DNA from: an uncultured Actinomycetes bacterium
GTDB lineage: Bacteria > Actinomycetota > Thermoleophilia > UBA2241
Assembly (NCBI GenBank): GCA_963767005.1
Contig: CAVYCN010000003.1
Coordinates: 384,001 to 448,000 of the forward strand
Reading direction: 5' to 3'
Length of the DNA: 64,000 nucleotides
The position numbers and the translations under genes were made by a program. Below, in pieces: positions 6,820-64,000 of the stretch (the first letter of the stretch is position 1; every line of letters begins with the position of its first letter). The notes under the pieces are model-generated. The model was not told the origin of the DNA. It was given only the letters and a program-made list of their open reading frames with translations, and did no database searches.

Positions 6820-7695
6820 CTAGCCCCGGCCGGTGAGTCGGCGACGCGCATCGGCGTACTTGGCGGCCGTCTTTTCGACGATCTCGTCGGGCAGCGCCGG
6901 CCCCGGTGCCTTCTTGTTCCAGTCGAGGGTCTCGAGGTAGTCGCGCACGAACTGCTTGTCGAAGCTCGGCTGGGCCTGGCCAGGCGTGTAGCCGTCGACC
7001 GGCCAGAACCGCGACGAGTCGGGGGTCATGGCCTCGTCGATCAGCAGCAACTCGCCGCTGCGCACGCCGAACTCGAACTTGGTGTCGGCGATGATGATGC
7101 CGTGCTCCAGGGCGTAGGCCGCGCCGAGCTCGTACAGGGCGATGGCCGCGTCGCGCACGCGTCCGGCGAGGTCGGCGCCGATCAGGCCGGCCACGTCGTC
7201 GAACGAGATGTTCTCGTCGTGGGTGCCCACGGCGGCCTTGGTCGAGGGCGCGAAGATGGTCCGCGGCAGCCGGCTGCCGTCGACGAGACCGGCCGGCAGC
7301 TCGATGCCGCAGACACTGCCGCTGCGCTCGTAGTCCTTCAGGCCGGAGCCGGTGAGGTAGCCGCGCACGATAGCCTCGACCGGCAGCGGCTCACAGCGCC
7401 GCACGGCGACCGAGCGTCCCTGCAGGTGCGCCTTCTCCGGGCGATTCGCGAACGGCTCGGGGTCGACCACGTGGTTGGGGATGATGTCCGCCGTCCGCTC
7501 GAACCAGAAGTTCGAGAGCTGGGTGAGGACCTCGCCCTTGCCGGGGATGGGGGTCGGCAGGATCACGTCGAACGCCGAGATACGGTCGGTCGCGACGATC
7601 ACGAGCGTGTCGTCGCCGACGGCGTAGATGTCGCGCACCTTGCCACGGCTCACGAGCCGCAGATCGGTCTCGCTGGTCTCAAAGAGCGCCTTCAC
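6820..7695 (-). CDS. purC: SAICAR synthetase
   Basis: RGKVRDIY, TDRISAFDV, EAIVRGYLTGSG, ADTKFEFG, DEAMTPDSSRFW, SFDKQFVRDYL; GTG start after AGGGGGAG. Confidence 0.97.
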   Translation of the reverse strand: MKALFETSETDLRLVSRGKVRDIYAVGDDTLVIVATDRISAFDVILPTPIPGKGEVLTQLSNFWFERTADIIPNHVVDPEPFANRPEKAHLQGRSVAVRRCEPLPVEAIVRGYLTGSGLKDYERSGSVCGIELPAGLVDGSRLPRTIFAPSTKAAVGTHDENISFDDVAGLIGADLAGRVRDAAIALYELGAAYALEHGIIIADTKFEFGVRSGELLLIDEAMTPDSSRFWPVDGYTPGQAQPSFDKQFVRDYLETLDWNKKAPGPALPDEIVEKTAAKYADARRRLTGRG

Positions 7696-7838
7696 GTGCC
7701 GTCTCCCCCTTCTCACCGTTGTCGGGCGGTCGGTCGCGAGCGGGCGCGCGCGGCGCGGCGCCCGGCTCGTGAGCAGACCCTACCACGCGCTCGCCGGGCG
7801 GCGATCACGGACGCCGCGGCGCGCCGGACGCGCGGCGG

Positions 7839-8753
7839 TCACAGCATGCGTTCGAGGAGCGGCAGCAGCGCGACGCCCAGCACGACCGCCGGGTACAGGC
7901 TGGCGCTGTCGAAGTAGGCGGCCGCCGCGGCGACGTCGGGCCGGTGCCAGAGCCGCGCCCCCGGCCAGGCCACCACGAGCACGCCCGCGACGACGGCCAG
8001 GTCGTTCACCATGACGCCGCCGGTGGGCAGCGGGATGGTCGCGATCAAGGCCGCGAAGCCCAGGGCCCCGGCGGCGCGCGCGACGGCGACCGGTCCGTGG
8101 ACGGCGGCGAGGCTGCGCGCCGGCCACCCCGCTGCCTCGTGTCGCGCCAGGCCGTCGGCGATGTCACAGCAGCCGACGGCCCAGATCACGAGGAACGCGA
8201 CGACGGTCAGGGCCCGAGGCGAGAGCGACGCCACGGCCGACCAGCCGGCCAGGCCGGCCGCCCCGGCGGCCAGGCCCGTGGCCGCCGTCCGCCGTTCGGG
8301 AGCGAGCGACGGCAGGCAGCCGAGCACCTCGAGGCCGGCGGCGACGGCGTAGAACGCCAGGCAGAGCGGCGACAGCGTCAGGGCGAGCAGCCCGCCGAGC
8401 GTCGCCAGCGCGGTCAGGCCCGCGAGCGGCGCGGCCGGCGGCCGGCCGCGGCGCGCGTCCCACACGAGTACCGCGTGCGGCGCGCCGGCGACGCGCGGTG
8501 CGGCCGCGACGGCCGCGCGCCGCAGCAGGCGCTCGCGCAACGAGAAGACCGCATACGACCCGGCGAGCGCCGCGAGCAGGCCGACGAGCGCGACGCGCGC
8601 GCTCGGCAGGTCGCCGCGGGCCAGCACCGCCGCGAGGGCGGGCGGCGTCGTGGCGAGTAGCGCCTTGCGCGCCGGCGAGACGCGCAACCGCGCGACCCGG
8701 CCGCGCAGGTCGCCGGGGTCGCTCGAGAGCGCCGCTGCCGGCTGTCGACTTAT
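7839..8753 (-). CDS. UbiA-family prenyltransferase-like membrane protein with degenerate Asp-rich motifs
   Basis: Multi-TM; GLLAALAGSYAVFSL and final YFDSASLYP resemble UbiA/MqnP-like proteins. Start uncertain: ATA at 8753 after GAGGAGGT, or TTG at 8687. Confidence 0.6.
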   Translation of the reverse strand: MSRQPAAALSSDPGDLRGRVARLRVSPARKALLATTPPALAAVLARGDLPSARVALVGLLAALAGSYAVFSLRERLLRRAAVAAAPRVAGAPHAVLVWDARRGRPPAAPLAGLTALATLGGLLALTLSPLCLAFYAVAAGLEVLGCLPSLAPERRTAATGLAAGAAGLAGWSAVASLSPRALTVVAFLVIWAVGCCDIADGLARHEAAGWPARSLAAVHGPVAVARAAGALGFAALIATIPLPTGGVMVNDLAVVAGVLVVAWPGARLWHRPDVAAAAAYFDSASLYPAVVLGVALLPLLERML

Positions 8754-8823
8754 CCCGACCTCCTCGTCGTCACTTACGAGGGAGCGTTCCCCGTCGCGCC
8801 CCCCGCGGGGCGCGTTTGGGCGA

Positions 8824-8856
8824 GGCGGGCGGCGGGCGTCCCGCCCGCCGCCCGCC
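8824..8856 (-). terminator. GC-rich stem-loop after sod
   Basis: GGCGGGCGGCGGGCG-TCC-CGCCCGCCGCCCGCC, 15-bp stem right after the stop codon; no U tract. Confidence 0.5.
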
Positions 8857-8863
8857 CGCCCGC

Positions 8864-9457
8864 TCAGGCGCCCAGGTTGCGCGCCGCGAAGTCCCAGTCG
8901 ACGAGACTGTCGCAGAAGGCCTGAACGAAGTCGGGCCGGCGGTTCTGGAAGTCGAGGTAGTAGGCGTGCTCCCACACGTCGCAGGTGAGGAGCGGCTTGA
9001 CCGGCGGCACCGGCATCTCGGCGTTGGGGGTCGTCACGATCTTCAGGGCGCCGGCGTCGTCGACGAGCCACGCCCAGCCGCTGCCGAAGCGCCCCACGGC
9101 GGCCACCTTGAACTGCTCGACGAAGGCGGCGAGGCCGCCGAACGTCGCGTCGATGCGCTCCGCCAGCGCGCCGCTGGGGGCGCCGCCGCCGCCCGGCTTC
9201 ATCGAGCTCCAGAAGAAGGTGTGGTTCCAGACCTGGGCCGCGTTGTTGAAGACGCCGGCCTTGCCGGGGTCGCCGGCGACCGCCGCGATCACCTCCTCGA
9301 GGGTCTGACCCTCGAGATCGGTGCCGGCGACCAGCTTGTTCAGGTTGTCGACGTAGGCGCGATGGTGCTTGCCGTAGTGAAAGCCGATCGTACGCGCCGA
9401 AGTGACCGGTTCGAGCGCGTCCTCGGGCCACGGCAGGGGCGGCAGTTCGAAAGCCAT
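8864..9457 (-). CDS. sodB: Fe/Mn superoxide dismutase (Fe-type signature)
   Basis: FHYGKHH, NNAAQVWNHTFFW, FGSGWAWL, DVWEHAYYLD; AAQ pattern typical of Fe-SOD. Confidence 0.95.
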   Translation of the reverse strand: MAFELPPLPWPEDALEPVTSARTIGFHYGKHHRAYVDNLNKLVAGTDLEGQTLEEVIAAVAGDPGKAGVFNNAAQVWNHTFFWSSMKPGGGGAPSGALAERIDATFGGLAAFVEQFKVAAVGRFGSGWAWLVDDAGALKIVTTPNAEMPVPPVKPLLTCDVWEHAYYLDFQNRRPDFVQAFCDSLVDWDFAARNLGA

Positions 9458-9549
9458 GAGTTCCCTCCTTGTCGTTCTCAGTTGGTCGTAAGCGGATCCG
9501 GCCCGAACGACACGCCGGCCTGAGCGCCGACGACGCCGCCGTTCGGCGC

Positions 9550-9936
9550 CTAGACGTCGACTTCGACGGCGCCGTCGATCACGCGCACCGGCCAGGTGGC
9601 GAGGCCTTCGACGCGGATCTTGCGCTGCAGGCGGTCCTCGACCGCGAGCGGGCGTCGCACCGCCGCCGGCAGGGGCTCGTCACCGAAGTCGCGGTCGAGC
9701 GGGTAGGCGAGCACCGAGCCGTCGCGCACGTCGAACTGCGCGTAGTGCAGCGGGCACGTCAGCACGTGACCGGCGAGCGAGCCCTGGTCGAGCGGGGCGT
9801 TCATGTGGCCGCAGCGGCGGGCGACCGCGTGGAACGTGCCGTCGCAGTTGGCGAGGGTGGCCTGCACACCGCCGAGCTTGACGAACTTGAGGCCGCCGAC
9901 GGCGACATCGGCGGCACGGGCGACCTCAGTCCACAC
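9550..9936 (-). CDS. Rieske [2Fe-2S] ferredoxin with C-terminal insertion
   Basis: CGH...CPLH Rieske motif. Confidence 0.88.
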   Translation of the reverse strand: MWTEVARAADVAVGGLKFVKLGGVQATLANCDGTFHAVARRCGHMNAPLDQGSLAGHVLTCPLHYAQFDVRDGSVLAYPLDRDFGDEPLPAAVRRPLAVEDRLQRKIRVEGLATWPVRVIDGAVEVDV

Positions 9937-9942
9937 CGCCGC

Positions 9943-10281
9943 TCACCCCTCGAGGCCGAGCTCGCTCGCAGGGATCTGCGGCAGCGAGCTCGGGTCGTCG
10001 ACGTCGACGTGCACGAACAGGCCGCACCAGCAGCGCCGCATGGCGTCGAAGTGGGCCCGGTGGTACGGGATACAGGGACAGACGATGCGCATGTCGTGGT
10101 CGCGCCGGCGCGTGCGACCCTGGCACGGGCAGTAGGGCGCGCCCTTGTTCTCCTCGAGCACGGCCTCCTGCTCGAGCAGAAAGTCGGCGAGCTCGGTGTC
10201 GGGCGTGAACTTGTAGCCGAGCGCCGCGACGAGCGGCGTGAAGAACCCGCGCAGGGCGGTCACGCGGGCGTCGTGGGTCAT
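9943..10281 (-). CDS. Ferredoxin-thioredoxin reductase catalytic subunit-like protein
   Basis: PYCPC...IVCPC...CWCGLF motif of FTR catalytic chains. Confidence 0.92.
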   Translation of the reverse strand: MTHDARVTALRGFFTPLVAALGYKFTPDTELADFLLEQEAVLEENKGAPYCPCQGRTRRRDHDMRIVCPCIPYHRAHFDAMRRCWCGLFVHVDVDDPSSLPQIPASELGLEG

Positions 10282-10538
10282 CAGGAGGCGTCCTTCAGGA
10301 GCTGGTCGTAGCGCTCCGGCGCGTAGCCGACGACCACCTCGGCGCCGATCTTCACCACCGGATAGGCGCGCGACCCCGACAGGTCGAACGCCTCGTCGGC
10401 CAGGCGGTCGCTCTCGTCGTCGGGCAGCAGATCGACATCGACCGCCTCGAAGGCGACGCCGCTGTCCTCAAAGTACTGCTTGGCCTTGCGGCACCAGGGG
10501 CACGTGCTCAGGGCGTAGACGAAGACGCCGTCGTTCAC
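10281..10538 (-). CDS. Glutaredoxin/NrdH-like redoxin
   Basis: YALSTCPWCRKAK...YPVVKIG...VVGY; GTG start after GAGG; TGATG overlap with the FTR gene. Confidence 0.9.
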   Translation of the reverse strand: MNDGVFVYALSTCPWCRKAKQYFEDSGVAFEAVDVDLLPDDESDRLADEAFDLSGSRAYPVVKIGAEVVVGYAPERYDQLLKDAS

Positions 10539-10542
10539 GGTC

Positions 10543-10863
10543 TCACACCTCGCTTGGAAGCTCGACGAAGACCTCGCCGCCGGCGAGGCGCACAGGGTAG
10601 GTCGGGATGGCGATCTCGGGGGCCTCGATGAACGCCCCCGTGCGCAGGTCGAAGCGCCAGTCGTGGCACGGGCAGGTGAGGACGAACCCCTCGCAGCCGC
10701 CGGCTTCGAGCGGGCAGGCCATGTGAGCGCAGCGGTTGGCCACCGCGAAGACCCCGCCGTCGACCTTGGCGAGCAGCAGACCCAGCCCGCGCGGGTAGAC
10801 GGCGAGCAGCCCACCCTCGCGTAGCGCGGCCTCGTCGGCCACCTTGATCCAGCTGTCGGCCAC
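10543..10863 (-). CDS. Rieske [2Fe-2S] ferredoxin
   Basis: NRCAH...CPCHDWRFDLRTG. Confidence 0.9.
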   Translation of the reverse strand: MADSWIKVADEAALREGGLLAVYPRGLGLLLAKVDGGVFAVANRCAHMACPLEAGGCEGFVLTCPCHDWRFDLRTGAFIEAPEIAIPTYPVRLAGGEVFVELPSEV

Positions 10864-11027
10864 TGCCCTCCCGGTCTTATTCGAGCACGCCGATGGCGCC
10901 CTCGATCGTGCACGACCTTACCATGCGAAAACGGGGGTCCGCGCCGTTCGCCGCCGCCCGGATGCCGGCTCGCCACCGCGGCCGGCGCGCACAGCGGCAC
11001 GGCGCGCTCGAACGCCGCTCGCCGCGC

Positions 11028-11531
11028 CTACCAGCACTCGCGGTGCACGTGCTCGGCGCGGTAGCGGTCGGCCGGCCGCTTGCCTTCGGCCGGCCGGCCG
11101 ACGGCGACCACGGCGAACGGGGTGACCCCGTCGGGCACGCCGAGCAGGGCGCGCAGGCCGGCGACTCGTTCCTCGAGCGGATGCACGCCGAGCCAGACGG
11201 CGCCCAGGCCGATCGTCTCGGCCTCGACCAGCAGGTTCTCGACGGCCGCCGCGCAGTCCTGCTCCCAGAACCGCGGCCAGCGCAGCCCTTCGGTGGCGCC
11301 GCACACCACGATGGCGAGGGGCGCCCGCTCGAGCATGCTCGCGTACGGGTGGAACGTGGTGACGGCACGCAGGGTGGCCGGGTCGGTGACGAGGACGAAG
11401 CGCCAGGGCTGCTGGTTGCCGGCCGAGGGCGCGGCCATGGCGGCTCGCAGGAGCCGCTCGACCTGATCGTCGGGCACCGCGTCGCCGGTGTAGGCGCGGA
11501 TGCTGCGACGGGTCAGGATGGGGTCGTCCAC
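11028..11531 (-). CDS. Nitroreductase family protein
   Basis: ILTRRSIRAY, AAPSAGNQQPWRF, QDCAAAVENLL, GLGAVWLG; GTG start after GAGGAGG. Confidence 0.93.
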   Translation of the reverse strand: MDDPILTRRSIRAYTGDAVPDDQVERLLRAAMAAPSAGNQQPWRFVLVTDPATLRAVTTFHPYASMLERAPLAIVVCGATEGLRWPRFWEQDCAAAVENLLVEAETIGLGAVWLGVHPLEERVAGLRALLGVPDGVTPFAVVAVGRPAEGKRPADRYRAEHVHRECW

Positions 11532-11655
11532 GGGACTGCCTCCTCGGCTGGCCGGCTCTGCTTTGTAGCAGCGCATCGTATCAGCTCGCTTCGGCCGGCA
11601 GTGCCGACGAACGACTCGCCGTCGCTCAGGCGGCGTGACTTCGGCGCGCGCCTAG

Positions 11656-14421
<2,766 letters not shown>

Positions 14422-14600
14422 ACCAGCTCGTCGACCGACCCCGCCGTCGCCGCTCAAGGCCGGCACGGCGCCGTCGCGTGCGCCGCGGTCACAGCCGTTC
14501 CACAGCGCTCTCCATCCACTCTCTCATCGAACGCGCCCACAATCGCGCGTGTGAGAGCCCACGCCCTCACCGTTCGTGCAGCAACGAGGAGGCATCGCGC

Positions 14601-15170
14601 ATGAGCCGCAAGACCGTCACCTGGATCGCCGTCGGAGCGCTCGCGGTCGCCGCGGTGATCGTCGCCGCCATCGTCGCCTACCATGTCGGCGCCAACCACA
14701 GCTCCGGTCGCGTCGCCGTGGGCCCGTTCCGCCGCTCGCTCGGCACGCCGGTGCTCCTGCGGACCACCCGCTCGTTCCCGACCGCCGAGGCCCTCGTGCT
14801 GCTACTGATCGGCGGCGGCGTCGGCGTCGCGATCGCCGTGCTCGCCCGGCCCGGCGGCGCGCTTGCCGGCCACCCGGCGCCGACCCCGCCGGTCGACCCG
14901 CGCTGGCGCGAGCTCGACGACTGGCACCGCTGGGCCCACGGATCGCCGGTCCCGCCCGCGAACGACCAGAGCGCGCCGCCGGCCGCCGCGGCGACGCCCG
15001 CCGCGGCCGCTCCGCCCGCTCCACCGGCGCCCTCAGCCGTGCCGCAGACCGAGCCGACCGCGCCGCCCGCCGAGCCGACCGCGCCGCCGGCTCCTTCGGC
15101 ACCGCCCGCCAACCCTGCCGCCGGGGCCGAGGGGTCGACACCGCCGGCCCCGCCCACCGAGCCGGCCTGA
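14601..15170 (+). CDS. Hypothetical two-TM protein with Pro/Ala-rich tail
   Basis: GAGGAGG SD; two hydrophobic segments; LDDWHRWAH motif; PTAPPAE repeats. Confidence 0.75.
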   Translation: MSRKTVTWIAVGALAVAAVIVAAIVAYHVGANHSSGRVAVGPFRRSLGTPVLLRTTRSFPTAEALVLLLIGGGVGVAIAVLARPGGALAGHPAPTPPVDPRWRELDDWHRWAHGSPVPPANDQSAPPAAAATPAAAAPPAPPAPSAVPQTEPTAPPAEPTAPPAPSAPPANPAAGAEGSTPPAPPTEPA

Positions 15171-20306: not shown

Positions 20307-21623
20307 ATGCGCGTACTGGTTGTCGGCGGCGGCGGTCGCGAGCACGCCCTGGTCCACGCTTTCTGCGCCTCGCCGCTGGCCACGCAGGTGTTCTGCGCCC
20401 CGGGCAACGCCGGCATCGACCAGGAGGCCGACCCCGTCGCGCTCGACGGTGGCGACCTCGAGGGCCTGCTCGCCTTCGCCCGGCGCGAGAAGATCGACCT
20501 GACGGTCGTCGGGCCCGAGGCGCCGCTCGTCGCCGGCATCGCCGACCTGTTCGCCGAGCACGGCCTGCTCGTCTTTGGCCCCACCCGCGAGGCGGCGCGC
20601 CTCGAGGGCAGCAAGGTCTTCGCCAAAGAGGTCATGGCCGACGCCGGCGTGGCCAGCGGCCGCTACCGCCGCCACGACGACCTGAGCGCCGCCCTGCGCG
20701 ACGTCGCCTCGCAGGACGTCTGGCCGCTCGTGGTCAAAGCCGACGGCCTGGCCGCCGGCAAGGGCGTGATCATCTGCAACGATTGCGGAGAGGCCGAGGC
20801 GGCCGTGCGGCTCTGCCTGGCCGAACGCGCCTTCGGCGAGGCCGGCGACGCCGTGCTGCTCGAGGAGCACCTGAGCGGCCCCGAGGTCTCGCTGCTCGCC
20901 CTCTGCGACGGCACCAGCGTGGTGCCGATGGCGCCGGCCCAGGACTACAAGCGCATCTTCGCCGGCGACCAGGGACCCAACACCGGCGGCATGGGCAGCT
21001 ACTGTCCCGTGCCCGGCTTCACGCCCGACGTGGCCGAGACGGTGGCCGAGGACCTCTTCCGGCCGGTGCTCGAGGCGCTCAAGCGACGCGGCGTCGACTA
21101 TCGCGGCGTGCTCTACGGCGGCCTGATCGTGACCGACCACGGCGTCAAGCTGCTCGAGTTCAACTGTCGCTTCGGCGACCCCGAGACGCAGGCGATCCTG
21201 CCGCGGCTCGAATCCGACCTGCTCGAAGCCTGCCTGGCGACCGCCCGCGGCGAGCTCGACCCGGCGATGCTGCGTTTCAGGCCGGAAGCGTGCGTGTCGA
21301 TCGTCATGGCCTCGCGCGGCTACCCGGCCTCGAGCTCGAAGGGCGACGTCATCACCGGCCTCTCCGAAGCGGCGGCGCTGCCCGACGTGACGATCTACCA
21401 CGCGGCTACCGCGGTGCGCGGCAACGACATCGTCACCGCGGGGGGTCGCGTGCTGGCCGTGAGCGGCCTGGGCGAGCACTTCGCCGCGGCGCGCGAGCGC
21501 GCCTACGGCGCGCTCGCGCGCATCTCGTTCGCGGGCATGCAGTCGCGTCGCGACATCGCCGAGCGGGCCGTGCGCGCCGAGGCCGGCGAGATCGCGCTCT
21601 TCCCGGCGACGTGGGCTCGCTGA
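20307..21623 (+). CDS. purD: Phosphoribosylamine-glycine ligase
   Basis: VVGGGGREHAL, APGNAG, VVKADGLAAGKGV, QDYKR, GPNTGGMG, EFNCRFGDPE. Confidence 0.98.
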   Translation: MRVLVVGGGGREHALVHAFCASPLATQVFCAPGNAGIDQEADPVALDGGDLEGLLAFARREKIDLTVVGPEAPLVAGIADLFAEHGLLVFGPTREAARLEGSKVFAKEVMADAGVASGRYRRHDDLSAALRDVASQDVWPLVVKADGLAAGKGVIICNDCGEAEAAVRLCLAERAFGEAGDAVLLEEHLSGPEVSLLALCDGTSVVPMAPAQDYKRIFAGDQGPNTGGMGSYCPVPGFTPDVAETVAEDLFRPVLEALKRRGVDYRGVLYGGLIVTDHGVKLLEFNCRFGDPETQAILPRLESDLLEACLATARGELDPAMLRFRPEACVSIVMASRGYPASSSKGDVITGLSEAAALPDVTIYHAATAVRGNDIVTAGGRVLAVSGLGEHFAAARERAYGALARISFAGMQSRRDIAERAVRAEAGEIALFPATWAR

Positions 21624-50505: not shown

Positions 50506-50748
50506 ATGAACACCAAGCTGACCCTGCGTCTCGACGACGAGCTCATTCACGGGGCCAAGCGCTACGCGCATGAGTCCGGCAAGTCGCTATCACAACTCGT
50601 CGCCGACTACTTCGCCGTCATCGCCGCCGGCAAGCCAGGAACGACATCCGAGATGGGCCCTCGCGTCCGTTCGCTCGCGGGAGCGCTCAAGGGGGCGACG
50701 CTGAGCGAAGACGACTACCGTCGCCACCTCGAAGAGAAGTACCGGTGA
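50506..50748 (+). CDS. RHH-type antitoxin (DUF6364-like)
   Basis: MNTKLTLRLD...AKRYA...GKSLSQLV.DYF...HLEEKY. Confidence 0.88.
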   Translation: MNTKLTLRLDDELIHGAKRYAHESGKSLSQLVADYFAVIAAGKPGTTSEMGPRVRSLAGALKGATLSEDDYRRHLEEKYR

Positions 50749-51167
50749 ACGTGCTCTTCGATACCAACGTGGTGCTCGACGTGCTCATCGGTCGCGAGCC
50801 CCACTTCGAGACCGGCGTCCGCCTGTTCGCCGCCGTCGACCAGGGCCGGCTCAACGGAACGATCTGCGCGACCACCGCCACGACTGTCCACTACATCGCC
50901 GCCAAGACGCTTGGTGCCAAGCAAGCGAAGACGCTGGTACGCGAACTGCTCGCGCTGTTCGGCGTCGCGCCCGTCGACGCCGAGGTGCTCCGGCGCGCGC
51001 TCGGCTTCGCCTTCGCCGAGTTCGAAGACGCCGTCGTCCACGAAGCGGCGCGGGCGGGCGGCATGAGCGCCATCGTCACCCGCGATACCAAGGGCTTCGC
51101 TCGGGCCAGCCTTCCGGTCTACGAGCCCGGCGAGCTGCTCGCCGCGCTCGAGGCCACAGGCGCATAG
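50745..51167 (+). CDS. PIN-domain toxin (VapC-like)
   Basis: VLFDTNVVLD, FEDAV, IVTRD; GTGA overlap with the antitoxin. Confidence 0.9.
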   Translation: MNVLFDTNVVLDVLIGREPHFETGVRLFAAVDQGRLNGTICATTATTVHYIAAKTLGAKQAKTLVRELLALFGVAPVDAEVLRRALGFAFAEFEDAVVHEAARAGGMSAIVTRDTKGFARASLPVYEPGELLAALEATGA

Positions 51168-56120: not shown

Positions 56121-56480
56121 GTGCAACCCCCGCCCCCAGACACCGACCGGGGCGGCAAGGCTGCGTACTGGCTCACCGCTCAGCGATCGCCCATCCGCAC
56201 GGAGTTCGGACCCATCGTCGCGACAGGAGTCGTGACGCTCGCGGCCGGCGCCGTCGCGTTTCTCGCCCTCGCCACCCGCCACGGCTCGGGCGCCCTGCTG
56301 ATCATCGAGTTCGTCGCCGCCTTCGTCTGCCTCGGCGCCGCCATCGGTCTGTTCGGTTTCGGTATCGCCGCGACGCTCCGCCGCGGCGCCTGGCTCATCC
56401 TCGCTCTCGGCGTCGTCTTCACGCCGCTCGTCTACTTCGTGTGGGCGCTCTACCGCCTGCGCACCGACGCACGGGAGTGA
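56121..56480 (+). CDS. Hypothetical three-TM membrane protein
   Basis: Three hydrophobic segments; GC3 bias. Confidence 0.55.
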   Translation: MQPPPPDTDRGGKAAYWLTAQRSPIRTEFGPIVATGVVTLAAGAVAFLALATRHGSGALLIIEFVAAFVCLGAAIGLFGFGIAATLRRGAWLILALGVVFTPLVYFVWALYRLRTDARE

Positions 56481-56487
56481 GGAGAGA

Positions 56488-57348
56488 CTAGACGACGGCG
56501 CGGTGGCCCTCGACGCGCAGCCGCTTGCGACGCTCGCGCCAGTCGGGCAGCACCGCTTCGACGCGGCGCCAGAAGGCCGGTCGGTGATTGAGCTCGCGCA
56601 GATGGCAGAGCTCGTGGACGACGACGTAGTCGAGCAGCGCCGGGTCGAGCAGCACGAGGCCCCAGTGGAGGCTCACCCGGCCCTTCGCCGAGCAACTCCC
56701 CCAGCGGCTGCGCATGTCCTTGACGGTGAACGGCGGCGGCGCGACACCGACGACCGCCGCGAAGTGCGCGACGCGCGCTCCCAGTACGGCCCCGGCGCGC
56801 CGCCGATACCAGACGCGGAAGTGCTCGGCGGCGTCGGCGCGCGCGCCCTCGAGCAACTCGAAGCGACCATCCCGCAGACGGAGCGGCTCGTCCGTGCCCC
56901 CGTCGCCGTGGTCGACGGCCGTACCGTCCCGCTCGACGGCCGTACCGTCCCGCTCGACGGCCGCCACGTCGAACGCAAGCTGGCCGTCGTCGCGCGCGCC
57001 CACGGAGGCCGAGCCCGGGACGCCCGTCGGCACGAGATGCGCCTCCCCGACGACGACGAGCTCGTGCTCGACCCCCAGGTAGGGGAACCGCTCGCCGGCC
57101 TCGTAGCGGTGCGGCGGAAGCTGGGCGAGCGCGCTGCGCTCGCCCAGCTTCCGCCGCACCCAGGCGAGCTTGCCGCGCACGGCGGCCTCGGCCGCGCGCC
57201 GCGAGCAGCGGGCCGGCAGGGCCACGACCGGCGGTCCCTCGCGCGGGATCGTGATGCCGATCGTGCGGCGCCGGGCGCTGCGGCGCAGAGCGAACGTCAC
57301 CTCGGCGACTGTCAGGGTGTCGCGGGTCTCACGGGGGGCGGGCATCAT
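56488..57348 (-). CDS. YgjP/DUF45-like M48 metal-dependent hydrolase
   Basis: RRSARRRTIG, GERFPYLG, MRSRWGSCS, DYVVVHELCHL...NH...FW. Confidence 0.9.
   Translation of the reverse strand: MMPAPRETRDTLTVAEVTFALRRSARRRTIGITIPREGPPVVALPARCSRRAAEAAVRGKLAWVRRKLGERSALAQLPPHRYEAGERFPYLGVEHELVVVGEAHLVPTGVPGSASVGARDDGQLAFDVAAVERDGTAVERDGTAVDHGDGGTDEPLRLRDGRFELLEGARADAAEHFRVWYRRRAGAVLGARVAHFAAVVGVAPPPFTVKDMRSRWGSCSAKGRVSLHWGLVLLDPALLDYVVVHELCHLRELNHRPAFWRRVEAVLPDWRERRKRLRVEGHRAVV
56912..56963. repeat. 21-bp in-frame tandem repeat (about 2.5 copies)
   Basis: TCGACGGCCGTACCGTCCCGC twice plus a partial copy; encodes AVERDGT repeats in the M48 gene. Confidence 0.85.
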
Positions 57349-57429: not shown

Positions 57430-58485
57430 ATGACAGAGGGCAGCGGTTTCACCTACCGGGAATCCGGCGTCGACGTGCAGGCCGGCAACGAGGCCGTCCG
57501 CCTGCTGCGCGAGCGCATCCGCACGGTCAAGCACCCTCTGGTCCTCGACGGCATCGGCGGCTTCGGCGGCATGATCCGCATGCCGCCGCTCAAGGACGCC
57601 GTGCTCGTGGCCGGCGCCGACGGCGCCGGCACCAAATCGATGATCGCCCGCGAGATGGGCGTGTTCGACACCGTCGGCATCGACGCCGTCGCGATGAACG
57701 TCAACGACGTGTCGGCCTGTGGCGCCGTGCCGTTCTTCGTGCTCGACTACCTCGTAGTGAGCAAGCTCGTCCCCGCGCGTGTGGCCGACATCGTGGCCGG
57801 CGTCGACGAAGGCTGCCGGCAGGCCGAGTGCGTGCTGCTCGGCGGCGAGACCGGCGAGCACCCCGGACACTTCCGCCACGACGACGACTTCGACATCGCC
57901 GCCTTTGCGGTCGGCATCGCCGCGCGCGACGAGCTCTGGACCGCGGCCGCCGTGGCGGCCGGCGACGCCATCGTGGGCCTGTCGTCGACCGGCGTGCACT
58001 CCAACGGCTTCAGCCTGGTGCGTCACGTGCTGGCGCGGCGTCACGTCGACCTACACGAGCCCTTCCCCGGCGCCGGCCGCTCGATCGGCGACGTCCTGCT
58101 CACGCCGACCGCCATCTACAGCCCGGTGCTGCACGACCTGGGCCACGCCTGCCGCGTGCACGCCGCGGCCCACATCACGGGCGGCGGCTTTCCCGACAAC
58201 GTCGGCCGGGCGCTACCCGGCGGCCTCACCGCCGTCCTCGACCTCGAGAGCTGGCGCCTGCCGGCCGTGTTCGCCTGGCTGCGCGAGGCCGGCGTCGACG
58301 ACGACGGCCTGCTCGCCACCTTCAACTGCGGCATCGGCATGGTCGTGGTGCTGCCCGCCGACGAGGTCGCGCGCGCGTTCGACGTCTGCGCCAAACGCGG
58401 CGTCGAGGCCCGCGTCGTCGGCGAGGTCGTGGCCCGCGCCGCGGGCGAGCCGGCGGTCGGCTACCGGGGGAAGCTGACGACGTGA
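57430..58485 (+). CDS. purM: AIR synthetase
   Basis: YRESGVD, GGFGG, DGAGTK, VAMNVND, GGET, STGVHSNGFSLVR, HITGGG, TFNCGIGMV. Confidence 0.97.
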   Translation: MTEGSGFTYRESGVDVQAGNEAVRLLRERIRTVKHPLVLDGIGGFGGMIRMPPLKDAVLVAGADGAGTKSMIAREMGVFDTVGIDAVAMNVNDVSACGAVPFFVLDYLVVSKLVPARVADIVAGVDEGCRQAECVLLGGETGEHPGHFRHDDDFDIAAFAVGIAARDELWTAAAVAAGDAIVGLSSTGVHSNGFSLVRHVLARRHVDLHEPFPGAGRSIGDVLLTPTAIYSPVLHDLGHACRVHAAAHITGGGFPDNVGRALPGGLTAVLDLESWRLPAVFAWLREAGVDDDGLLATFNCGIGMVVVLPADEVARAFDVCAKRGVEARVVGEVVARAAGEPAVGYRGKLTT

Positions 58486-59480
58486 GGACGTACGACCTGA
58501 TCGGCTGCGGGGCGCTCAACCTCGACCTCATCTACCGCCCGCCGGCCGACTCGCCGCTCTGGGGCGAGCTGCCGGCGCCCGGCGCCGAGCAGGCGGTCAC
58601 GCCCGACGTCCGCGACCGCCTGCTGCCTGCCCTGGCCGGCCTCGAGCCGGCGCGCAGCGGCGGCGGTCAGGCGGCCAACACGTCGTACGCCCTGGCGCGC
58701 ATGGGCTTCGCTGCGGCCATGCTCGGACGCGTCGGCGCCGACGACGCCGGGCGCTTCCTGGCCGACCAGCTCGCCCCGTGCGACGCGCGCTACCTCGCCC
58801 GGCAGGGCGAGTCGGGCTGCGTCTACGTGCTGCTCAACGACTCGGGCGAGCGCCGCAACCTGGTGTGGCCGGCGGCCAACGACGACTTCGCGCCGGCCGA
58901 CCTGCCGCGACGCCTGCCGCCGACCCGCTTCGCCTACTTCTCGTCGTTCGTCGGCGAGCGCGCCCTGCAGACGCAGCTCGCCCTGCTCGAACGGCTGCCC
59001 GGCGACGTCGAGATCGCCTTCGACCCGGGCGAGATCTACGCGCGCCTGGGCGTGAAGCGCTTCATGCCGTTCCTGCGGCGCGCCTCGTATGTCTTTGCCA
59101 CCGAGAGCGAGCTCGAGACGCTCTGCGGCCTGCCGGCCGACAAGGCGCTCGGCTTTCTGCTCGACGTCGGCGTCGGCCTCGTCGTGTGCAAGATGGGCGA
59201 CCGCGGCGCGCAGATCACCGGGCGCCGCCTCGACCTGTACGTGCCGCCGCACCCCGCCGAAGTGGTCGACGTCACCGGCGCCGGCGACCTGTTCGCGGCC
59301 GGCTTCTTCGGCGGCCTGCTCGAGGGCCTCGGCCTCGAGGCCGCCGGTCGCCTGGCCGCCTGGGCGGCCTCGCAGGGCATCGGCGGGCTCGGCCGCAGCA
59401 CGTACCCCAATGCCGCCGCCTTCCGCGAGCGCGTCGCCGAGGAACGCGAGCGCGCCGACCGCGTGACGCGCCTGCCATGA
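58482..59480 (+). CDS. PfkB/ribokinase-family kinase
   Basis: GALNLD, GGQAANT, GRVGADDAG, FDPG, VCKMGDRGA, VDVTGAGDLFAAGF; GTGA overlap with purM. Confidence 0.92.
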   Translation: MRTYDLIGCGALNLDLIYRPPADSPLWGELPAPGAEQAVTPDVRDRLLPALAGLEPARSGGGQAANTSYALARMGFAAAMLGRVGADDAGRFLADQLAPCDARYLARQGESGCVYVLLNDSGERRNLVWPAANDDFAPADLPRRLPPTRFAYFSSFVGERALQTQLALLERLPGDVEIAFDPGEIYARLGVKRFMPFLRRASYVFATESELETLCGLPADKALGFLLDVGVGLVVCKMGDRGAQITGRRLDLYVPPHPAEVVDVTGAGDLFAAGFFGGLLEGLGLEAAGRLAAWAASQGIGGLGRSTYPNAAAFRERVAEERERADRVTRLP

Positions 59481-59505
59481 CCCGCCCCACGGCGGCGCTT
59501 CCGTC

Positions 59506-60408
59506 ATGAGGATCGGCTGGCTGGCGACCGGCCGCGACCCGGCGGCCCGCACGCTGCTCTCCGAAGTTGTGCGCCGCGCCGGGCGCGACGGCGTCGACCT
59601 CGACATCGCCGTCGTGTTCTGCGATCGCGAGCGCGGCGAGCACGCCGAGAGCGACGCCTTTCTCGACCTCGCGGCCGCGCTCGGCCTCACCACCGTCACC
59701 AGGTCGAGCGCCGCGAGCTGGCGCGACTGGCTCCAGCATCGCGACGAGATGGAGCGCGTCGCGAGCAAGGCCGCCCTGCGCGAGGCCTGGCGCACTGCGT
59801 TCCACCGCGACGTGATCGAGATCCTCGCCGGCCACGGCGTCGATCTGCTCGTGCTGGCCGGCTACATGCTGATCACGAGCCCCGAGCTCTGCGCCCACTT
59901 TGCCATGCTCAACCTGCACCCGGCCCTGCCGGGCGGGCCTCAAGGCACCTGGCAGCAGGTCATCTGGAGCCTGCTGGCCGACGAGGCCCGTGAGACGGGC
60001 GCCATGATCCACCTGGCCACCGCCGACCTCGACCGGGGGCCGGTCGTGGCCTATTGCTCGTTCCCTATCGCCGGCCTGCGCTACGACCGGCTGTGGCATG
60101 CCTTTCGCCGCGGCCGCGAACGCCTCGGCCTCGAGGCCCTGGCGGCCGCCGAAGGCGAGGCGCAGCCGCTGTTCGCCGAGATCCGCCGCCAGGGTGAGCG
60201 CCGCGAGATCCCGCTGCTCTACCAGGCGGTGCGCGCCTTCGCCCAGGGGCAGCTTCTGGTGCGCGACGGCGCCGTGGTCGGCGTCGGCCTGCAGCCGCCC
60301 CTCGACCTCACCGAGGCCGTCGAAGCCGAGCTCGCCGCCGACGCCGCGGCAAGCGCCGGCGACCAGGCCGCCGCCGCCGAGAGCGACGACACCGGGGGGC
60401 GGCCATGA
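59506..60408 (+). CDS. Atypical PurN-like formyltransferase
   Basis: LAGYMLI, NLHPALP, ETGAMIH, LDRGP retained; N-terminal WLATGRD replaces the canonical SGxGSN; two insertions (300 aa). Confidence 0.85.
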   Translation: MRIGWLATGRDPAARTLLSEVVRRAGRDGVDLDIAVVFCDRERGEHAESDAFLDLAAALGLTTVTRSSAASWRDWLQHRDEMERVASKAALREAWRTAFHRDVIEILAGHGVDLLVLAGYMLITSPELCAHFAMLNLHPALPGGPQGTWQQVIWSLLADEARETGAMIHLATADLDRGPVVAYCSFPIAGLRYDRLWHAFRRGRERLGLEALAAAEGEAQPLFAEIRRQGERREIPLLYQAVRAFAQGQLLVRDGAVVGVGLQPPLDLTEAVEAELAADAAASAGDQAAAAESDDTGGRP

Positions 60409-61442
60409 CCGCGACGCCGCGTCTGTTCGTGACCGACTGTGAGGGTCCCCTCACGCGCAACGACAACGCCATGGAGGTCTGCGCCGCCTACCTGCCCGAC
60501 GGGGCCGAGCTGTACGCCCGCCTGTCGCGCTACGACGACTTCCTCGCCGACATCGTCCACCGGCCCGGCTACAACGCCGGCGACACGCTGCGACTGATCG
60601 TACCGTTCCTGCTCGCCTACGGCGTGACCGACCGCGACATCGAGGACTACAGCGCCGACACCGTGCTCGTCGTGCCGGGCGCCCGCGACCTGCTGGCCGA
60701 CGTCGCCGCGGCGCTGCCCGCCTACATCATCTCGACCTCGTATTCGCCCTACATCAGGGCGCTCTGCCGCGTCACCGGCTTTCCGTTCGCGCAGTGCCGC
60801 TGCACGACGATCGATCTCGACGCCTGGCACCTCACCCGCGACGAGTGCGAGTGGCTGCGCGACCGCGCCGAATCCGTCCTCGAGCACCCGGTGATCGAGC
60901 TGCCCGACGAGGCCCGGTCGGTCGACGACCTGTCGCCCGCCGACCGCGCCGCCGTCGCCGAGCTCGACCGGCTCTTCTGGGTCGACATGGCCGCGGCCGG
61001 CCGGCGCAGCGCCGACGTCGTCGCCGCGGTGCGGCCGGTCGGCGGCGGCCTCAAGCTCGAGGCGCTCAGCGCCATCGCGGCCGGCCGCCGCGTCGAGCTG
61101 GCCGACGTCATGTACGTCGGCGACTCGATCACCGACGTGCCGCCCTTCGCGGCCGTGCGCGCCGCCGGCGGCGTGGCCGTGAGCTTCAACGGCAACCGTT
61201 ACGCGCTGGCGGCGGCCGAGCTGGCGGTGGCCGCGGCCGACACGCGCCCCACCCGCGAGCTCGCGCTCGCCTTCGCCGCCGGGGGCCGACAGGCCGTGCT
61301 CGACGCCGTGCGACAGTGGCCGCCGACGAGCAAGCCGCTGCCGCGGGCCGGCCTGCTCTCGGAGTCGGCTGCGGCGCTCTCCCACGCCTCGGCCTACGCG
61401 CGTTCGCACGTGCGGGGCGAGCGCGTCGCTCGACTCGGCTGA
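60405..61442 (+). CDS. HAD-superfamily protein of the EhaR-like (COG4030-type) group
   Basis: FVTDCEGPLTRNDNA, SRYDD, YNAGDTL, ISTSY, YVGDSITD, SFNGNRYA; ATGA overlap with the formyltransferase. Confidence 0.8.
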   Translation: MTATPRLFVTDCEGPLTRNDNAMEVCAAYLPDGAELYARLSRYDDFLADIVHRPGYNAGDTLRLIVPFLLAYGVTDRDIEDYSADTVLVVPGARDLLADVAAALPAYIISTSYSPYIRALCRVTGFPFAQCRCTTIDLDAWHLTRDECEWLRDRAESVLEHPVIELPDEARSVDDLSPADRAAVAELDRLFWVDMAAAGRRSADVVAAVRPVGGGLKLEALSAIAAGRRVELADVMYVGDSITDVPPFAAVRAAGGVAVSFNGNRYALAAAELAVAAADTRPTRELALAFAAGGRQAVLDAVRQWPPTSKPLPRAGLLSESAAALSHASAYARSHVRGERVARLG

Positions 61443-61596: not shown

Positions 61597-63138
61597 GTGA
61601 AGGTTAAACGAGCTCTTCTCTCCGTCTTCAACAAAGCCGGTCTCCAAGAGTTCGCACGCGCGCTGGCCGACATGGGCGTCGAGATCGTCTCGACCGGGGG
61701 CACCGCCCGCCTGCTGGCCGACCAGGGTATCCCGGTCACCGAGGTCGCCGACGTCACGCAGTTTCCCGAGATGCTCGGCGGGCGCGTCAAGACCATGCAC
61801 CCGCGCATCCACGCCGGCATCCTCGCCCGGCGCGACGACCCCGACCACATGCGTACCCTCGCCGAGCACGACATCCAGCCCATCGACATGGTCGTGGTCA
61901 GCCTCTACCCGTTCGAAGAGGTCGCGGCCCAGCGCGGCGCCGACGAAGCGGCGGTGATCGAGATGATCGACATCGGCGGCCCCAGCATGATCCGGGCCGC
62001 CGCCAAGAACCACGAGAGCGTCGCGGTCGTGACCGAGCCCGACGACTACGCCGCCATCCTCGACGAGCTCAAGGCAAGCGGCGGCGAGCTCTCGCCCCTC
62101 ACCTGCCGCCACCTCGCCACGAAGGCCTTTCACAAGACGGCGCACTACGACTTCGTCATCGCCAACTGGTTCTCCGAGACCGAGGGCGACTTTCCGAGTC
62201 ACATCCTGCGCGACTACGAGAAGGTCATGGAGCTGTCCTACGGCGAGAACCCGCACCAGCGGGCGGCCTACTACGCCGAAAGCGGCGCGCGCCGCCACCT
62301 GCTGTCGCGCGTCACCCAGCTCCACGGCAAGAAGCTCTCGTTCAACAACCTCTACGACCTGCACGCCGCGCGCGCCCTCGCCAGCGAGTTCGCCCTGCCG
62401 GCCTGCGTCATCATCAAGCACAACAACCCCTGCGGCTCGGCGCTCGCCGAGACGCTCGAGCGCGCCTACGTCAAGGCGCTCGCCTGCGACCCGGTGTCGG
62501 CCTTTGGCTCCGTGATCGCGGTCAACCGCCCGGTCGACCTGGCCACCGCGCAGCGCATGTCCGAGCTGTTCGTCGAGGTCGTCTTCGCGCCGTCCTACGA
62601 CGACGACGCCCTCGAGCTGCTCGCCCGCAAGGCCGACATCCGCATCCTGGTCGACAACGAGCGCCGCAAGAACAACCCCGGCGAGATGGACTACAAGCGC
62701 GTGCTGGGCGGCGTGCTCGTGCAGGACCGCGACGCCGACCTCGAGGACCGCGAGTCCATGGAGGTCGTGAGCGAGCGTCACCCGACCGAGGCCGAGTGGG
62801 GCGACCTCATCTTCGCGAGCAGGGTGGCCAAGCACGTCAAGTCGAACGCCATCGTCATCGCCAAGGACCTCGCCACTCTGGGCGTCGGCGCCGGCCAGAT
62901 GAGCCGCGTCGACTCGACGCGCATCGCCCTCGAGAAGGCGCACGGCGACCTCAAGGGCGCGGTGATCGGCTCCGACGCGTTCTTCCCCTTCCCCGACGCC
63001 GTCGAGCTCGCCATCGACAACGGCATCACCGCCTTCATGCAGCCGGGCGGCTCCAAGCGCGACGACCTCGCGGTGAGGCTCTGCGACGAACGAGGCGCGG
63101 CGATGGTCTTCTCGCGCCGCCGCCACTTCCTTCATTAG
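61597..63138 (+). CDS. purH: Bifunctional AICAR transformylase/IMP cyclohydrolase
   Basis: RALLSV, STGGT, GGRVKTMHP, IDIGGPSMIRAAAKN, YGENPHQ, KHNNPCG, SDAFFPF, QPGGS, RHFLH. Confidence 0.98.
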   Translation: MKVKRALLSVFNKAGLQEFARALADMGVEIVSTGGTARLLADQGIPVTEVADVTQFPEMLGGRVKTMHPRIHAGILARRDDPDHMRTLAEHDIQPIDMVVVSLYPFEEVAAQRGADEAAVIEMIDIGGPSMIRAAAKNHESVAVVTEPDDYAAILDELKASGGELSPLTCRHLATKAFHKTAHYDFVIANWFSETEGDFPSHILRDYEKVMELSYGENPHQRAAYYAESGARRHLLSRVTQLHGKKLSFNNLYDLHAARALASEFALPACVIIKHNNPCGSALAETLERAYVKALACDPVSAFGSVIAVNRPVDLATAQRMSELFVEVVFAPSYDDDALELLARKADIRILVDNERRKNNPGEMDYKRVLGGVLVQDRDADLEDRESMEVVSERHPTEAEWGDLIFASRVAKHVKSNAIVIAKDLATLGVGAGQMSRVDSTRIALEKAHGDLKGAVIGSDAFFPFPDAVELAIDNGITAFMQPGGSKRDDLAVRLCDERGAAMVFSRRRHFLH

Positions 63139-63147
63139 CGGCGCCAG

Positions 63148-64000
63148 GTGAACCCGGCGTCCGGCGACGGCGCACGCCAGACCGGGCGGCCGGCCTACGA
63201 CCGCGTCGTCCTCGGCGACGACGCCCTGCGCCTGCGCCCCTGGCGGACCACCGAGGCGCCGGTCATGGCGGCGGCCTGCGCCGACCCCGACATCGCCCGC
63301 TTCTGCATGATGCCGGCCGGCTACACGGTCGCCCTCGCTCGCGACTTCATCGCCGACGCGCCACGGGCCTGGTCCGAGGACGGCTGGCTCCACCTGGCGC
63401 TGGCCAGCGGAGCCGACGACCGCGTGGTCGGCGCCGTCGGCCTGCTGAGCGGCCTGGCCGAGGATGCGAAGGCCGACCTGGGCTACTGGGTCGTGCCCGA
63501 CGCTCGCGGTCGCGGTCTGGCGCGCGCCGGCGTGGGGCTCATGACGGACTGGGCGTTCGCGTCGCTCGGCCTGCACCGCCTGGCGATCGGCACCATGGTC
63601 GGCAACGACCCCTCTCGGCGCGTCGCCCGCGGTCTCGGCTTTCGCCCCGAGGCGCTGCTACGCAGCGACCGGCCGCTCGACGGCAGGCGCACCGACTGCG
63701 TGCTCTACTCGCTGCTCGACGACGCGTGGCGCGCGGGTGCGGGCGGCGGCGAGGGCCGGCCGGCGGCCGCACTACCCGACGAGGCGCTCCTACCGGCCCT
63801 CGCCGCCGCCCGCACCGACTACCCCGCCGTCGCGCCGGCGCTGCCCGTCGCCCCGCCGCCCCTCGGCGACGGTGCCATCACCCTGCGGCCCTACCGCGAC
63901 GCTGATGTGCCCGACATGGTGCGCGCCTGCAGCGATCCCGAGACGCAGCGCTGGCTCCCGGTGCTGCCCACGCCCTACACCGACGCCGACGCGCGCGAGT
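63148..64000 (+). CDS. RimJ/RimL-type GNAT acetyltransferase with tandem domains (3' truncated)
   Basis: LRLRPW, ACADPDIARF, LGYWVVPDARGRGLA, NDPSRRVARGLGF; second domain starts ITLRPY...ACSDPETQRW; open to the window end. Confidence 0.88.
   Translation, partial: MNPASGDGARQTGRPAYDRVVLGDDALRLRPWRTTEAPVMAAACADPDIARFCMMPAGYTVALARDFIADAPRAWSEDGWLHLALASGADDRVVGAVGLLSGLAEDAKADLGYWVVPDARGRGLARAGVGLMTDWAFASLGLHRLAIGTMVGNDPSRRVARGLGFRPEALLRSDRPLDGRRTDCVLYSLLDDAWRAGAGGGEGRPAAALPDEALLPALAAARTDYPAVAPALPVAPPPLGDGAITLRPYRDADVPDMVRACSDPETQRWLPVLPTPYTDADARE

Follow-up and report, generated by a model that had tools for sequence, protein, structure and literature searches.

The third step of de novo purine synthesis, the formylation of glycinamide ribonucleotide (GAR) to formylglycinamide ribonucleotide (FGAR), is carried out by PurN, whose catalytic residues include His108 and Asp144 according to PMC3261824, or by PurT, a single ATP-grasp enzyme that acts on GAR itself. 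Since at least 2011 the step has been without a gene in several archaeal groups: PMC3261824 lists seven archaea in which purN and purT are missing (two Archaeoglobi, four Methanobacteria and M. kandleri), and PMC9012536 again gives the anaerobic methanotrophic group ANME-1 as being without PurN and PurT. Here we describe a 64,000-nucleotide stretch of DNA, the window (G000:C3:384001-448000), from the 3.4 Mb genome of an uncultured actinobacterium of the class Thermoleophilia (completeness 100%, contamination 4.9%), in which three tightly coupled genes, encoding a PfkB/ribokinase-family kinase, a long PurN-fold formyltransferase (FT) and a HAD-fold protein, stand in the place where purN would normally lie. 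This triad very probably performs the conversion of GAR to FGAR, and the likely course of it is a plain detour through ribosides, from GAR to glycinamide riboside, to the formyl riboside and on to FGAR. The genes and residues concerned, in window coordinates, are as follows:

57430..58485, + strand: purM, aminoimidazole ribonucleotide (AIR) synthetase, TIGR00878 at 357 bits (cut-off 236); upstream flank
58482..59480, + strand: PfkB/ribokinase-family kinase, 332 residues, EhaT-like, PF00294 at 121 bits; proposed formylglycinamide riboside kinase
59277..59288, + strand: GAGD motif of the kinase, residues 266-269
59506..60408, + strand: long PurN-fold formyltransferase (FT) of the Asp-loop type, 300 residues, PF00551 at 52.8 bits; proposed glycinamide riboside formyltransferase
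59524..59547, + strand: loop ATGRDPAA, FT residues 7-14 (Asp11, Ala13, Ala14), aligned on SGNGSN of E. coli PurN
59911..59919, + strand: FT N136-L-H138 (E. coli N106, H108)
60031..60033, + strand: FT D176 (E. coli D144), in LDRGP
60405..61442, + strand: HAD-fold protein of the AF1437/EhaR family, 345 residues, PDB 1y8a at E 4e-34; proposed GAR 5'-phosphatase
60435..60437, + strand: HAD nucleophile Asp11, in the motif DCEGP
61597..63138, + strand: purH, folate-dependent AICAR (aminoimidazole carboxamide ribonucleotide) transformylase/inosine monophosphate cyclohydrolase, TIGR00355 at 624 bits (cut-off 528); downstream flank

A sequence-only reading of the window had already placed three coupled genes between purM and purH, in the purN slot, and the coordinates, junctions and profile scores confirm it. 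The gene order is purS, purQ, purL, purF, two unrelated open reading frames (ORFs), purM, kinase, FT, HAD and purH; the GTG start of the kinase overlaps the purM stop by 4 bases, 25 bases separate the kinase from the FT, and the FT and HAD genes meet in a 4-base ATGA overlap. A purD-like gene is distant from the triad (window 20313-21584). That reading also saw no canonical purN or purT in the window, and the same holds for the whole genome, where PF00551 has two matches, the triad FT and an Fmt-like gene (Fmt by eye from its translation), and where the best PurT match, at 42 bits against a TIGR01142 cut-off of 502, leaves none over the cut-off. Seven further queries (the E. coli and an actinobacterial PurN, two divergent PurN types, a divergent PurT, a Gly-type FT, described below, and Ftr, which has no copy in this genome) matched nothing beyond the FT and the Fmt-like gene.

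The fold of the FT is that of PurN: the best Foldseek matches of its model (predicted local distance difference test score, pLDDT, 94.7) are all PurN (3auf, 3gar, 3tqr and 1cde, E 1e-13 to 3e-11). Alignment with E. coli PurN bears out what had been noticed by eye, that the FT retains the Asn/His (NLHP) and Asp (LDRGP) of the active site, both N136-L-H138 and D176 being invariant in 120/120 rows, and that ATGRD replaces the PurN loop. It has in common with PurN (TIGR00639; 1cde, 3gar, 3auf) the fold, the N106/H108/D144 set and the purM-purH operon slot, but it differs in being some 60-70 residues longer, in scoring 60.4 bits on the PurN equivalog TIGR00639, below the cut-off of 150.1, in its Asp-x-Ala-Ala loop, and in its linkage with HAD and kinase genes. 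The PurN loop Gly11-Ser12-Asn13, which we take to bind the GAR phosphate (no confirming source was found in the literature), is not kept, the FT having Asp11-Pro12-Ala13 instead; the Asp on Gly11 is stable across alignments, and the register of residues 12-13 shifts between them. E234 of the FT is invariant as well, and lands on PurN Glu173, presumably a ribose-binding residue, in the HMMER alignment to 3auf, and elsewhere with MAFFT.

The arrangement recurs well beyond the window. In all 80 of the GTDB HAD loci considered, the best 80 of 83 confirmed, the HAD has a formyltransferase partner, PurN-like in 18 and Ftr-like in 62 and never both, and the kinase is present in 79/80. Ftr (NF002554, formylmethanofuran:tetrahydromethanopterin formyltransferase) has a fold unrelated to that of the FT, yet in those 62 loci it is Ftr or its paralogue Ftr2 that fills the FT position between HAD and kinase. 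The PurN-like loci are actinobacterial in 17 cases and from Syntrophobacterales in one, and 58/62 Ftr loci are titled Bathyarchaeia. Among the actinobacterial loci the order purM-kinase-FT-HAD is found in 16/17, the 17th being cut by a contig end, and this recurrence exceeds chance. The usual Ftr locus reads purF-purD-HAD-Ftr-kinase, often with purQ-purL-purS-purM next to it on the opposite strand, and purD lies directly 5' of HAD in 59/62, the remaining three being cut short. Two of the purine-cluster Ftr proteins score over the NF002554 cut-off, and each of five genomes tested has a second, higher-scoring Ftr, to which the purine-cluster copy is 36-39% identical (these are tblastn identities only; an Ftr tree held 1/5 of the second copies and was not used). 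In two archaea a PurN-like FT directly follows purD, with HAD and kinase elsewhere in the genome. Fusions occur too: P0305 (a cluster of 2) joins an Asp-type FT to a HAD, with no kinase, and in P0325 and P0333 (899 and 961 residues) the HAD is fused with an ATP-grasp domain that is highly divergent and bears a weak resemblance to PurT. The type of partner changes at least 2 times across 40 HADs placed on a quick tree, and the HAD and kinase may be pictured as a constant frame around an exchangeable formyltransferase.

The sequence-only reading had asked whether the three families co-occur and anti-correlate with purN and purT, and the profiles turned out as predicted in three samples of incomplete and related genomes: 141 from the class of the source genome, 131 from an archaeal phylum (that of G144) and 151 from the phylum of G143. 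In the first, HAD occurs in 23 genomes and PurN over the cut-off in 115, with both in 0 and neither in 3; PurT was not found in any of the 27 genomes of this class that were searched for it (22 of them with HAD), nor in G000. In the phylum of G144, 16 genomes have HAD, 43 a PurN-like match (37 over the cut-off) and 30 a PurT-like match (0 over the cut-off), the overlap of HAD with either being 0, and 43 genomes are without any of the three; across 301 genomes of this phylum the PurN-like FT occurs in 2, both of them HAD-bearing. In the phylum of G143 the 34 genomes with HAD and the 81 with a PurN-like match (71 over the cut-off) again have an overlap of 0, 36/151 have neither, PurT exceeds its cut-off in 2 genomes, both without HAD, and one HAD genome has a 142-bit match to the PurT model. 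Across the three samples, 0/73 HAD-bearing genomes exceed the PurN or the PurT cut-off; Fisher tests on these samples were set aside, kin not being independent.

Several observations accompany these profiles. The two PurN-bearing members of the source family (L082 and L083; G002 and G014) have no HAD and smaller genomes, of 1.7-1.8 Mb, and their purN has no pur gene within 8 kb. A PurN type of ~220 residues with a Gly-rich loop (L303-L307, L134), missed by TIGR00639 at E 1e-30, is found in 6/10 examined genomes that have no canonical PurN match, and L135-L137 are other long PurN variants. A divergent PurT-like protein of ~455 residues lies between purD and purS at L180:4706-6061 (G200, an archaeon without HAD) and also in L179, and in the archaeal sample the PurT model scores 206-329 bits, short of its cut-off, in 19 genomes. 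L061 and L081, titled Limnocylindrales and Acidoferrum, show the archaeal HAD-Ftr-kinase order; the titles look wrong, and the L061 genome groups with the archaeal phylum of G144. In L175:8198-14679 (G213, an archaeon), CRISPR-Cas-like genes, recognised by eye, separate the FT from HAD-kinase.

Neighbourhoods and profiles together bear on whether the triad might work outside step 3 altogether, in the salvage of AIR or AICA riboside, on some other formylated metabolite, or as an accessory of the Eha hydrogenase, with GAR formylated by an unrecognised gene. EhaR, EhaS and EhaT are indeed treated as part of the eha transcription unit (PMC3087415), many non-actinobacterial loci have no nearby pur gene (this is so for most HAD loci in the phylum of G143), and the 36/151 and 43/131 genomes with neither HAD nor, at the thresholds applied, a PurN/PurT match indicate that unrecognised enzymes exist. 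Such genomes, where examined, nevertheless proved to have divergent PurN types, and the divergent PurN and PurT types were not found in the source genome. Most of the 80 GTDB loci have pur neighbours, and those of the window are purM and purH, not hydrogenase genes. Of the three families from which the HAD draws its partner (PurN-like, Ftr-like and weakly PurT-like), two comprise GAR transformylases. The AICAR step was considered as the target of the triad and rejected, purH being intact here, and in L014 a purP-like gene covers that step. A role outside step 3 is accordingly highly improbable, and the cycle of salvage or repair of dephosphorylated intermediates, which the sequence-only reading had offered as its alternative, is disfavoured.

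That the triad would dephosphorylate, formylate and rephosphorylate, an order we continue to infer, gains independent support from a switch in the FT loop that tracks HAD and kinase. Of the genomes sampled in the phylum of G143, 36 have the FT, 34 have HAD and 31 have both; the loop is Asp11-x-Ala-Ala in 31/31 genomes with FT and HAD, and Gly11-x-Gly13-Ser14 in 5/5 genomes with FT only. The loop is two-state among database homologues as well. In the class of G418 (72 genomes, 26 FT loci), 20 loci are of the Asp type, with HAD within 1.5 kb in 18 and the kinase in 19, the two without HAD lying at contig ends, and 0/6 Gly-type loci have a HAD or kinase neighbour; these groups are loop-defined, which makes counts by residue position circular for residues 11, 13 and 14 and leaves the HAD/kinase link as the evidence. 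Genome-wide, HAD was not found in 10/10 Gly-type genomes, apart from one weak 64-residue match, in a search of which part ran without a positive control, the same query having picked out four genomes of that class in another search. Of the Gly-type genomes, 4 were tested for the triad kinase, and it was detected in none of them (67-70 bits, against 223 in the control). On a loop-free tree of 32 FT rows the Gly type needs 2 changes and a single origin is rejected (approximately unbiased test, p-AU 1.7e-5), the FT trees being quick trees and the Gly group being defined by its motif, but with an earlier tree already seen. As the loop types track HAD and kinase, the FT form that seems unable to bind phosphate is the one accompanied by phosphatase and kinase; the form that seems able to bind it does without them. 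Stand-alone long FTs of the Gly type (L140-L144, L275, L277-L279, L281, L284) probably represent ordinary GAR transformylase in a distinct form that has gone unrecognised; one relative, P0549, has been named 'phosphoglycerate transporter' by NCBI.

The same dependence can be followed in loci where the triad is falling apart. The three HAD-only genomes of the G143 phylum encode another type of PurN, which has a Gly-rich loop and scores below the TIGR threshold, and 2/3 have lost the HAD nucleophile. In L285 (G635:C154:3816-6990) the triad FT and HAD are parted by an inserted Gly-loop purN, GAGD of the kinase has become GADE and the HAD nucleophile Asp has become Ala; this locus is, as far as its sequence can tell, a snapshot of the replacement of the triad by purN, with decay of the kinase and HAD. 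These findings bear directly on the proposal that the FT alone formylates GAR, the HAD and kinase being an accessory pair that trims or recovers purine intermediates (overflow control, riboside repair). The fold and catalytic residues are as in PurN, close Gly-type relatives evidently function without HAD and kinase, Arg10 is retained and could still touch the phosphate, and one locus, L197, has HAD and kinase beside a canonical purN. An accessory pair should, however, suit any GAR transformylase, yet it is missing in the 115, 37 and 71 PurN genomes of the three samples and in 10/10 genomes of the Gly type, and it degenerates once another purN has come in; the proposal also leaves unexplained the phosphate-loop Asp, which is seen only with the pair. 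We regard it as quite unlikely, and prefer the riboside detour.

The HAD that would open this detour matches AF1437 (PDB 1y8a) over residues 6-278 and is 32% identical to an M. kandleri protein (E 2e-40). D11, E13, S110-T111, K217, D240 and D244 are invariant in 22/22 rows, and motifs I-IV are all present. Of 206 distinct locus HADs, 203 have Asp as the nucleophile, as established by pattern for 129 and by eye for 74; the HADs without it, in L145, L146 and L285, are all in genomes with another PurN type. The family comprises 775 representatives at 50% identity, and among the best 150 of these Asp11 is found in 118/131 rows with a residue there. A small degenerate branch (P0329, P0352, P0361, P0384 and others) is without the catalytic Asp and motif IV. 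In our literature search no report of phosphate monoester hydrolysis by HADs of the AF1437/EhaR family was found.

Motif I of the HAD is D-x-E, with E13 in 123/132 rows with a residue, and this raises the thought that the riboside detour is a phosphate relay, in which the phospho-Asp of the HAD would pass the GAR phosphate to formylglycinamide riboside, the kinase serving to prime the cycle and to recover leaked riboside. D-x-E is the motif of the phosphotransferase ThrH, as a relay would have it, but it is also that of the plain phosphatase MtnC. The FT-HAD fusion P0305 leaves the kinase out, and in some groups adjacency of HAD and FT is commoner than adjacency of the kinase; a kinase with so limited a role is nevertheless hard to square with its presence in 79/80 GTDB loci and in 19/20 Asp-type loci of the class of G418, and with its being missing or decayed together with the HAD. 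A relay seems unlikely, and the plain detour is retained.

The kinase has N13-x-D15, G61-G62, N66 and G266-D269 invariant in 55/55 aligned triad kinases, and GAGD, which we take to provide the anion hole and the catalytic base, in 132 of the 133 distinct locus kinases where this motif could be located, the sole exception being the decaying locus L285. Among PfkB kinases (RbsK, adenosine kinase 3ubo, MJ0406 2c49), it has the ribose-binding N-x-D, GG-x-x-N and GAGD motifs in common with E. coli RbsK, but unlike RbsK and the nucleoside kinases it falls below every equivalog cut-off (TIGR02152, 78.5/299.65; NF053626, 92.5/330; NF041164, 26.2/450) and is confined to triad genomes. The best Foldseek matches of its model (pLDDT 94.5) are 4e3a, 4k8k and adenosine kinase 3ubo, and the template modelling (TM) score of 0.81 to a Rhizobium sugar kinase and to adenosine kinase is slightly above those to ribokinases (0.72-0.78); these matches of the predicted structure would fit a riboside substrate.

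Substrates, step order and formyl donor in the scheme that follows are what we infer. The HAD would remove the 5'-phosphate of GAR, the FT would formylate the resulting glycinamide riboside with 10-formyltetrahydrofolate, taken as the donor because purH is in the same operon, and the kinase would rephosphorylate the product at the expense of ATP, giving FGAR. The reverse roles, with HAD acting on FGAR and the kinase on the unformylated riboside, are unlikely because the pathway would drain. The overall reaction and its cost of one ATP would be the same as for PurT (TIGR01142), a weakly PurT-like domain being fused to HAD in P0325 and P0333, but PurT works as one enzyme on the nucleotide and was not found in the source genome or in 22 HAD-bearing relatives. 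On energetic reasoning, the extra ATP could pull a near-equilibrium formyl transfer. In Bathyarchaeia the frame would hold the Ftr paralogue, with formyl-methanofuran or formyl-tetrahydromethanopterin as the probable donor, and in methanogens the frame with an Ftr paralogue is probably EhaR/EhaS/EhaT.

This last step leads back to the archaeal gap. EhaS and EhaT are co-transcribed with ehaA-R, and their annotations are Ftr-type formyltransferase and ribokinase (PMC3087415); the statement in the sequence-only reading that EhaR sits beside a ribokinase-like gene in methanogen eha loci is borne out by that source. Its other statement, that some archaea are without a known GAR transformylase, likewise stands, given the seven listed in PMC3261824, and two organisms on that list, A. 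fulgidus (AF1437) and M. kandleri, have the HAD. Set against EhaR/EhaS/EhaT of the Methanothermobacter ehaA-T unit, the HAD of the window is of the same AF1437 family, and its relatives carry the JGI name 'energy-converting hydrogenase A subunit R'; PMC3087415, however, takes EhaR, EhaS and EhaT as hydrogenase subunits without assigned function, whereas here the FT has the PurN fold and the neighbours are pur genes. Ftr2 is described as uncharacterised in PMC9012536.

A number of points weigh against this account as a whole. The link to methanogens rests on PMC3087415 and on JGI names, the metagenome scan having yielded no recognisable Methanobacteriales eha locus, and ANME-2a/2b have Ftr2 together with PurN (PMC9012536). 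All 23 HAD genomes of the source class belong to one family and, as kin, are not independent; the loop switch has been seen in two events only; and motif I of the HAD is not D-x-D. Among metagenome HAD loci (80 of 419), many of them short, the FT is present in 33, the kinase in 34 and Ftr in 0. The ATP-grasp domains of P0325 and P0333 have PurT as their best match, but at only 33 bits, and one of the two seems to retain the Arg-Arg motif, which we take to bind phosphate in PurT. In G357 the HAD Asp is kept although another PurN is present and the FT was not detected, L252 has Thr at FT position 11 beside HAD and kinase, and in L197 an intact HAD and kinase stand with purH and a canonical purN. 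The L197 region (7001-14678, on an archaeal-looking metagenome contig) brings the HAD and kinase together with purH, canonical purN and a gene that by eye resembles folC, and may have arisen by insertion of a folate cassette into the triad.

With these points counted, we lean, on balance, towards a joint reading of bacterial and archaeal loci: a third route through unphosphorylated ribosides, an EhaR/EhaT frame that takes three unrelated formyltransferase folds, a gap thereby filled in Archaeoglobi, Methanobacteriales, Methanopyrus and probably ANME-1, EhaR, EhaS and EhaT as purine enzymes and not hydrogenase subunits, and three loop residues that switch the PurN-fold FT between riboside and nucleotide.

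The remainder of the window calls for brief mention. The two ORFs that split purF from purM (56121-57345) are one for a small membrane protein and another, on the - strand, with a HELCH motif, presumably metallopeptidase-like, and a direct repeat of 7 residues. Directly before purS (50506-51167), ORFs of 80 and 140 residues resemble, by eye, an antitoxin/PIN-domain toxin pair, and, as a finding outside the present subject, seven ORFs upstream of purS had no NCBIfam match. An ORF 3' of purH (63148-64000) resembles, by eye, a tandem GNAT acetyltransferase and runs past the window end.

The triad is, in our view, a real alternative to the PurN and PurT enzymes that draws on known folds and is undescribed as far as we searched: no paper assigning it to purine synthesis was found in a literature search that covered few subscription journals and no supplements. 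The odd FT of bacteria is presently annotated as ordinary PurN. Because the version in the window is of the folate type, a test in E. coli would need no archaeal cofactors, and the naturally occurring Asp and Gly loops offer a built-in control. The triad supplies candidates for the archaeal gap, and the system that would fill it extends to bacteria; if the reading is true, Ftr2 and three supposed hydrogenase subunits would gain a function, and a committed de novo pathway that removes a phosphate and then restores it would add something new to core metabolism.

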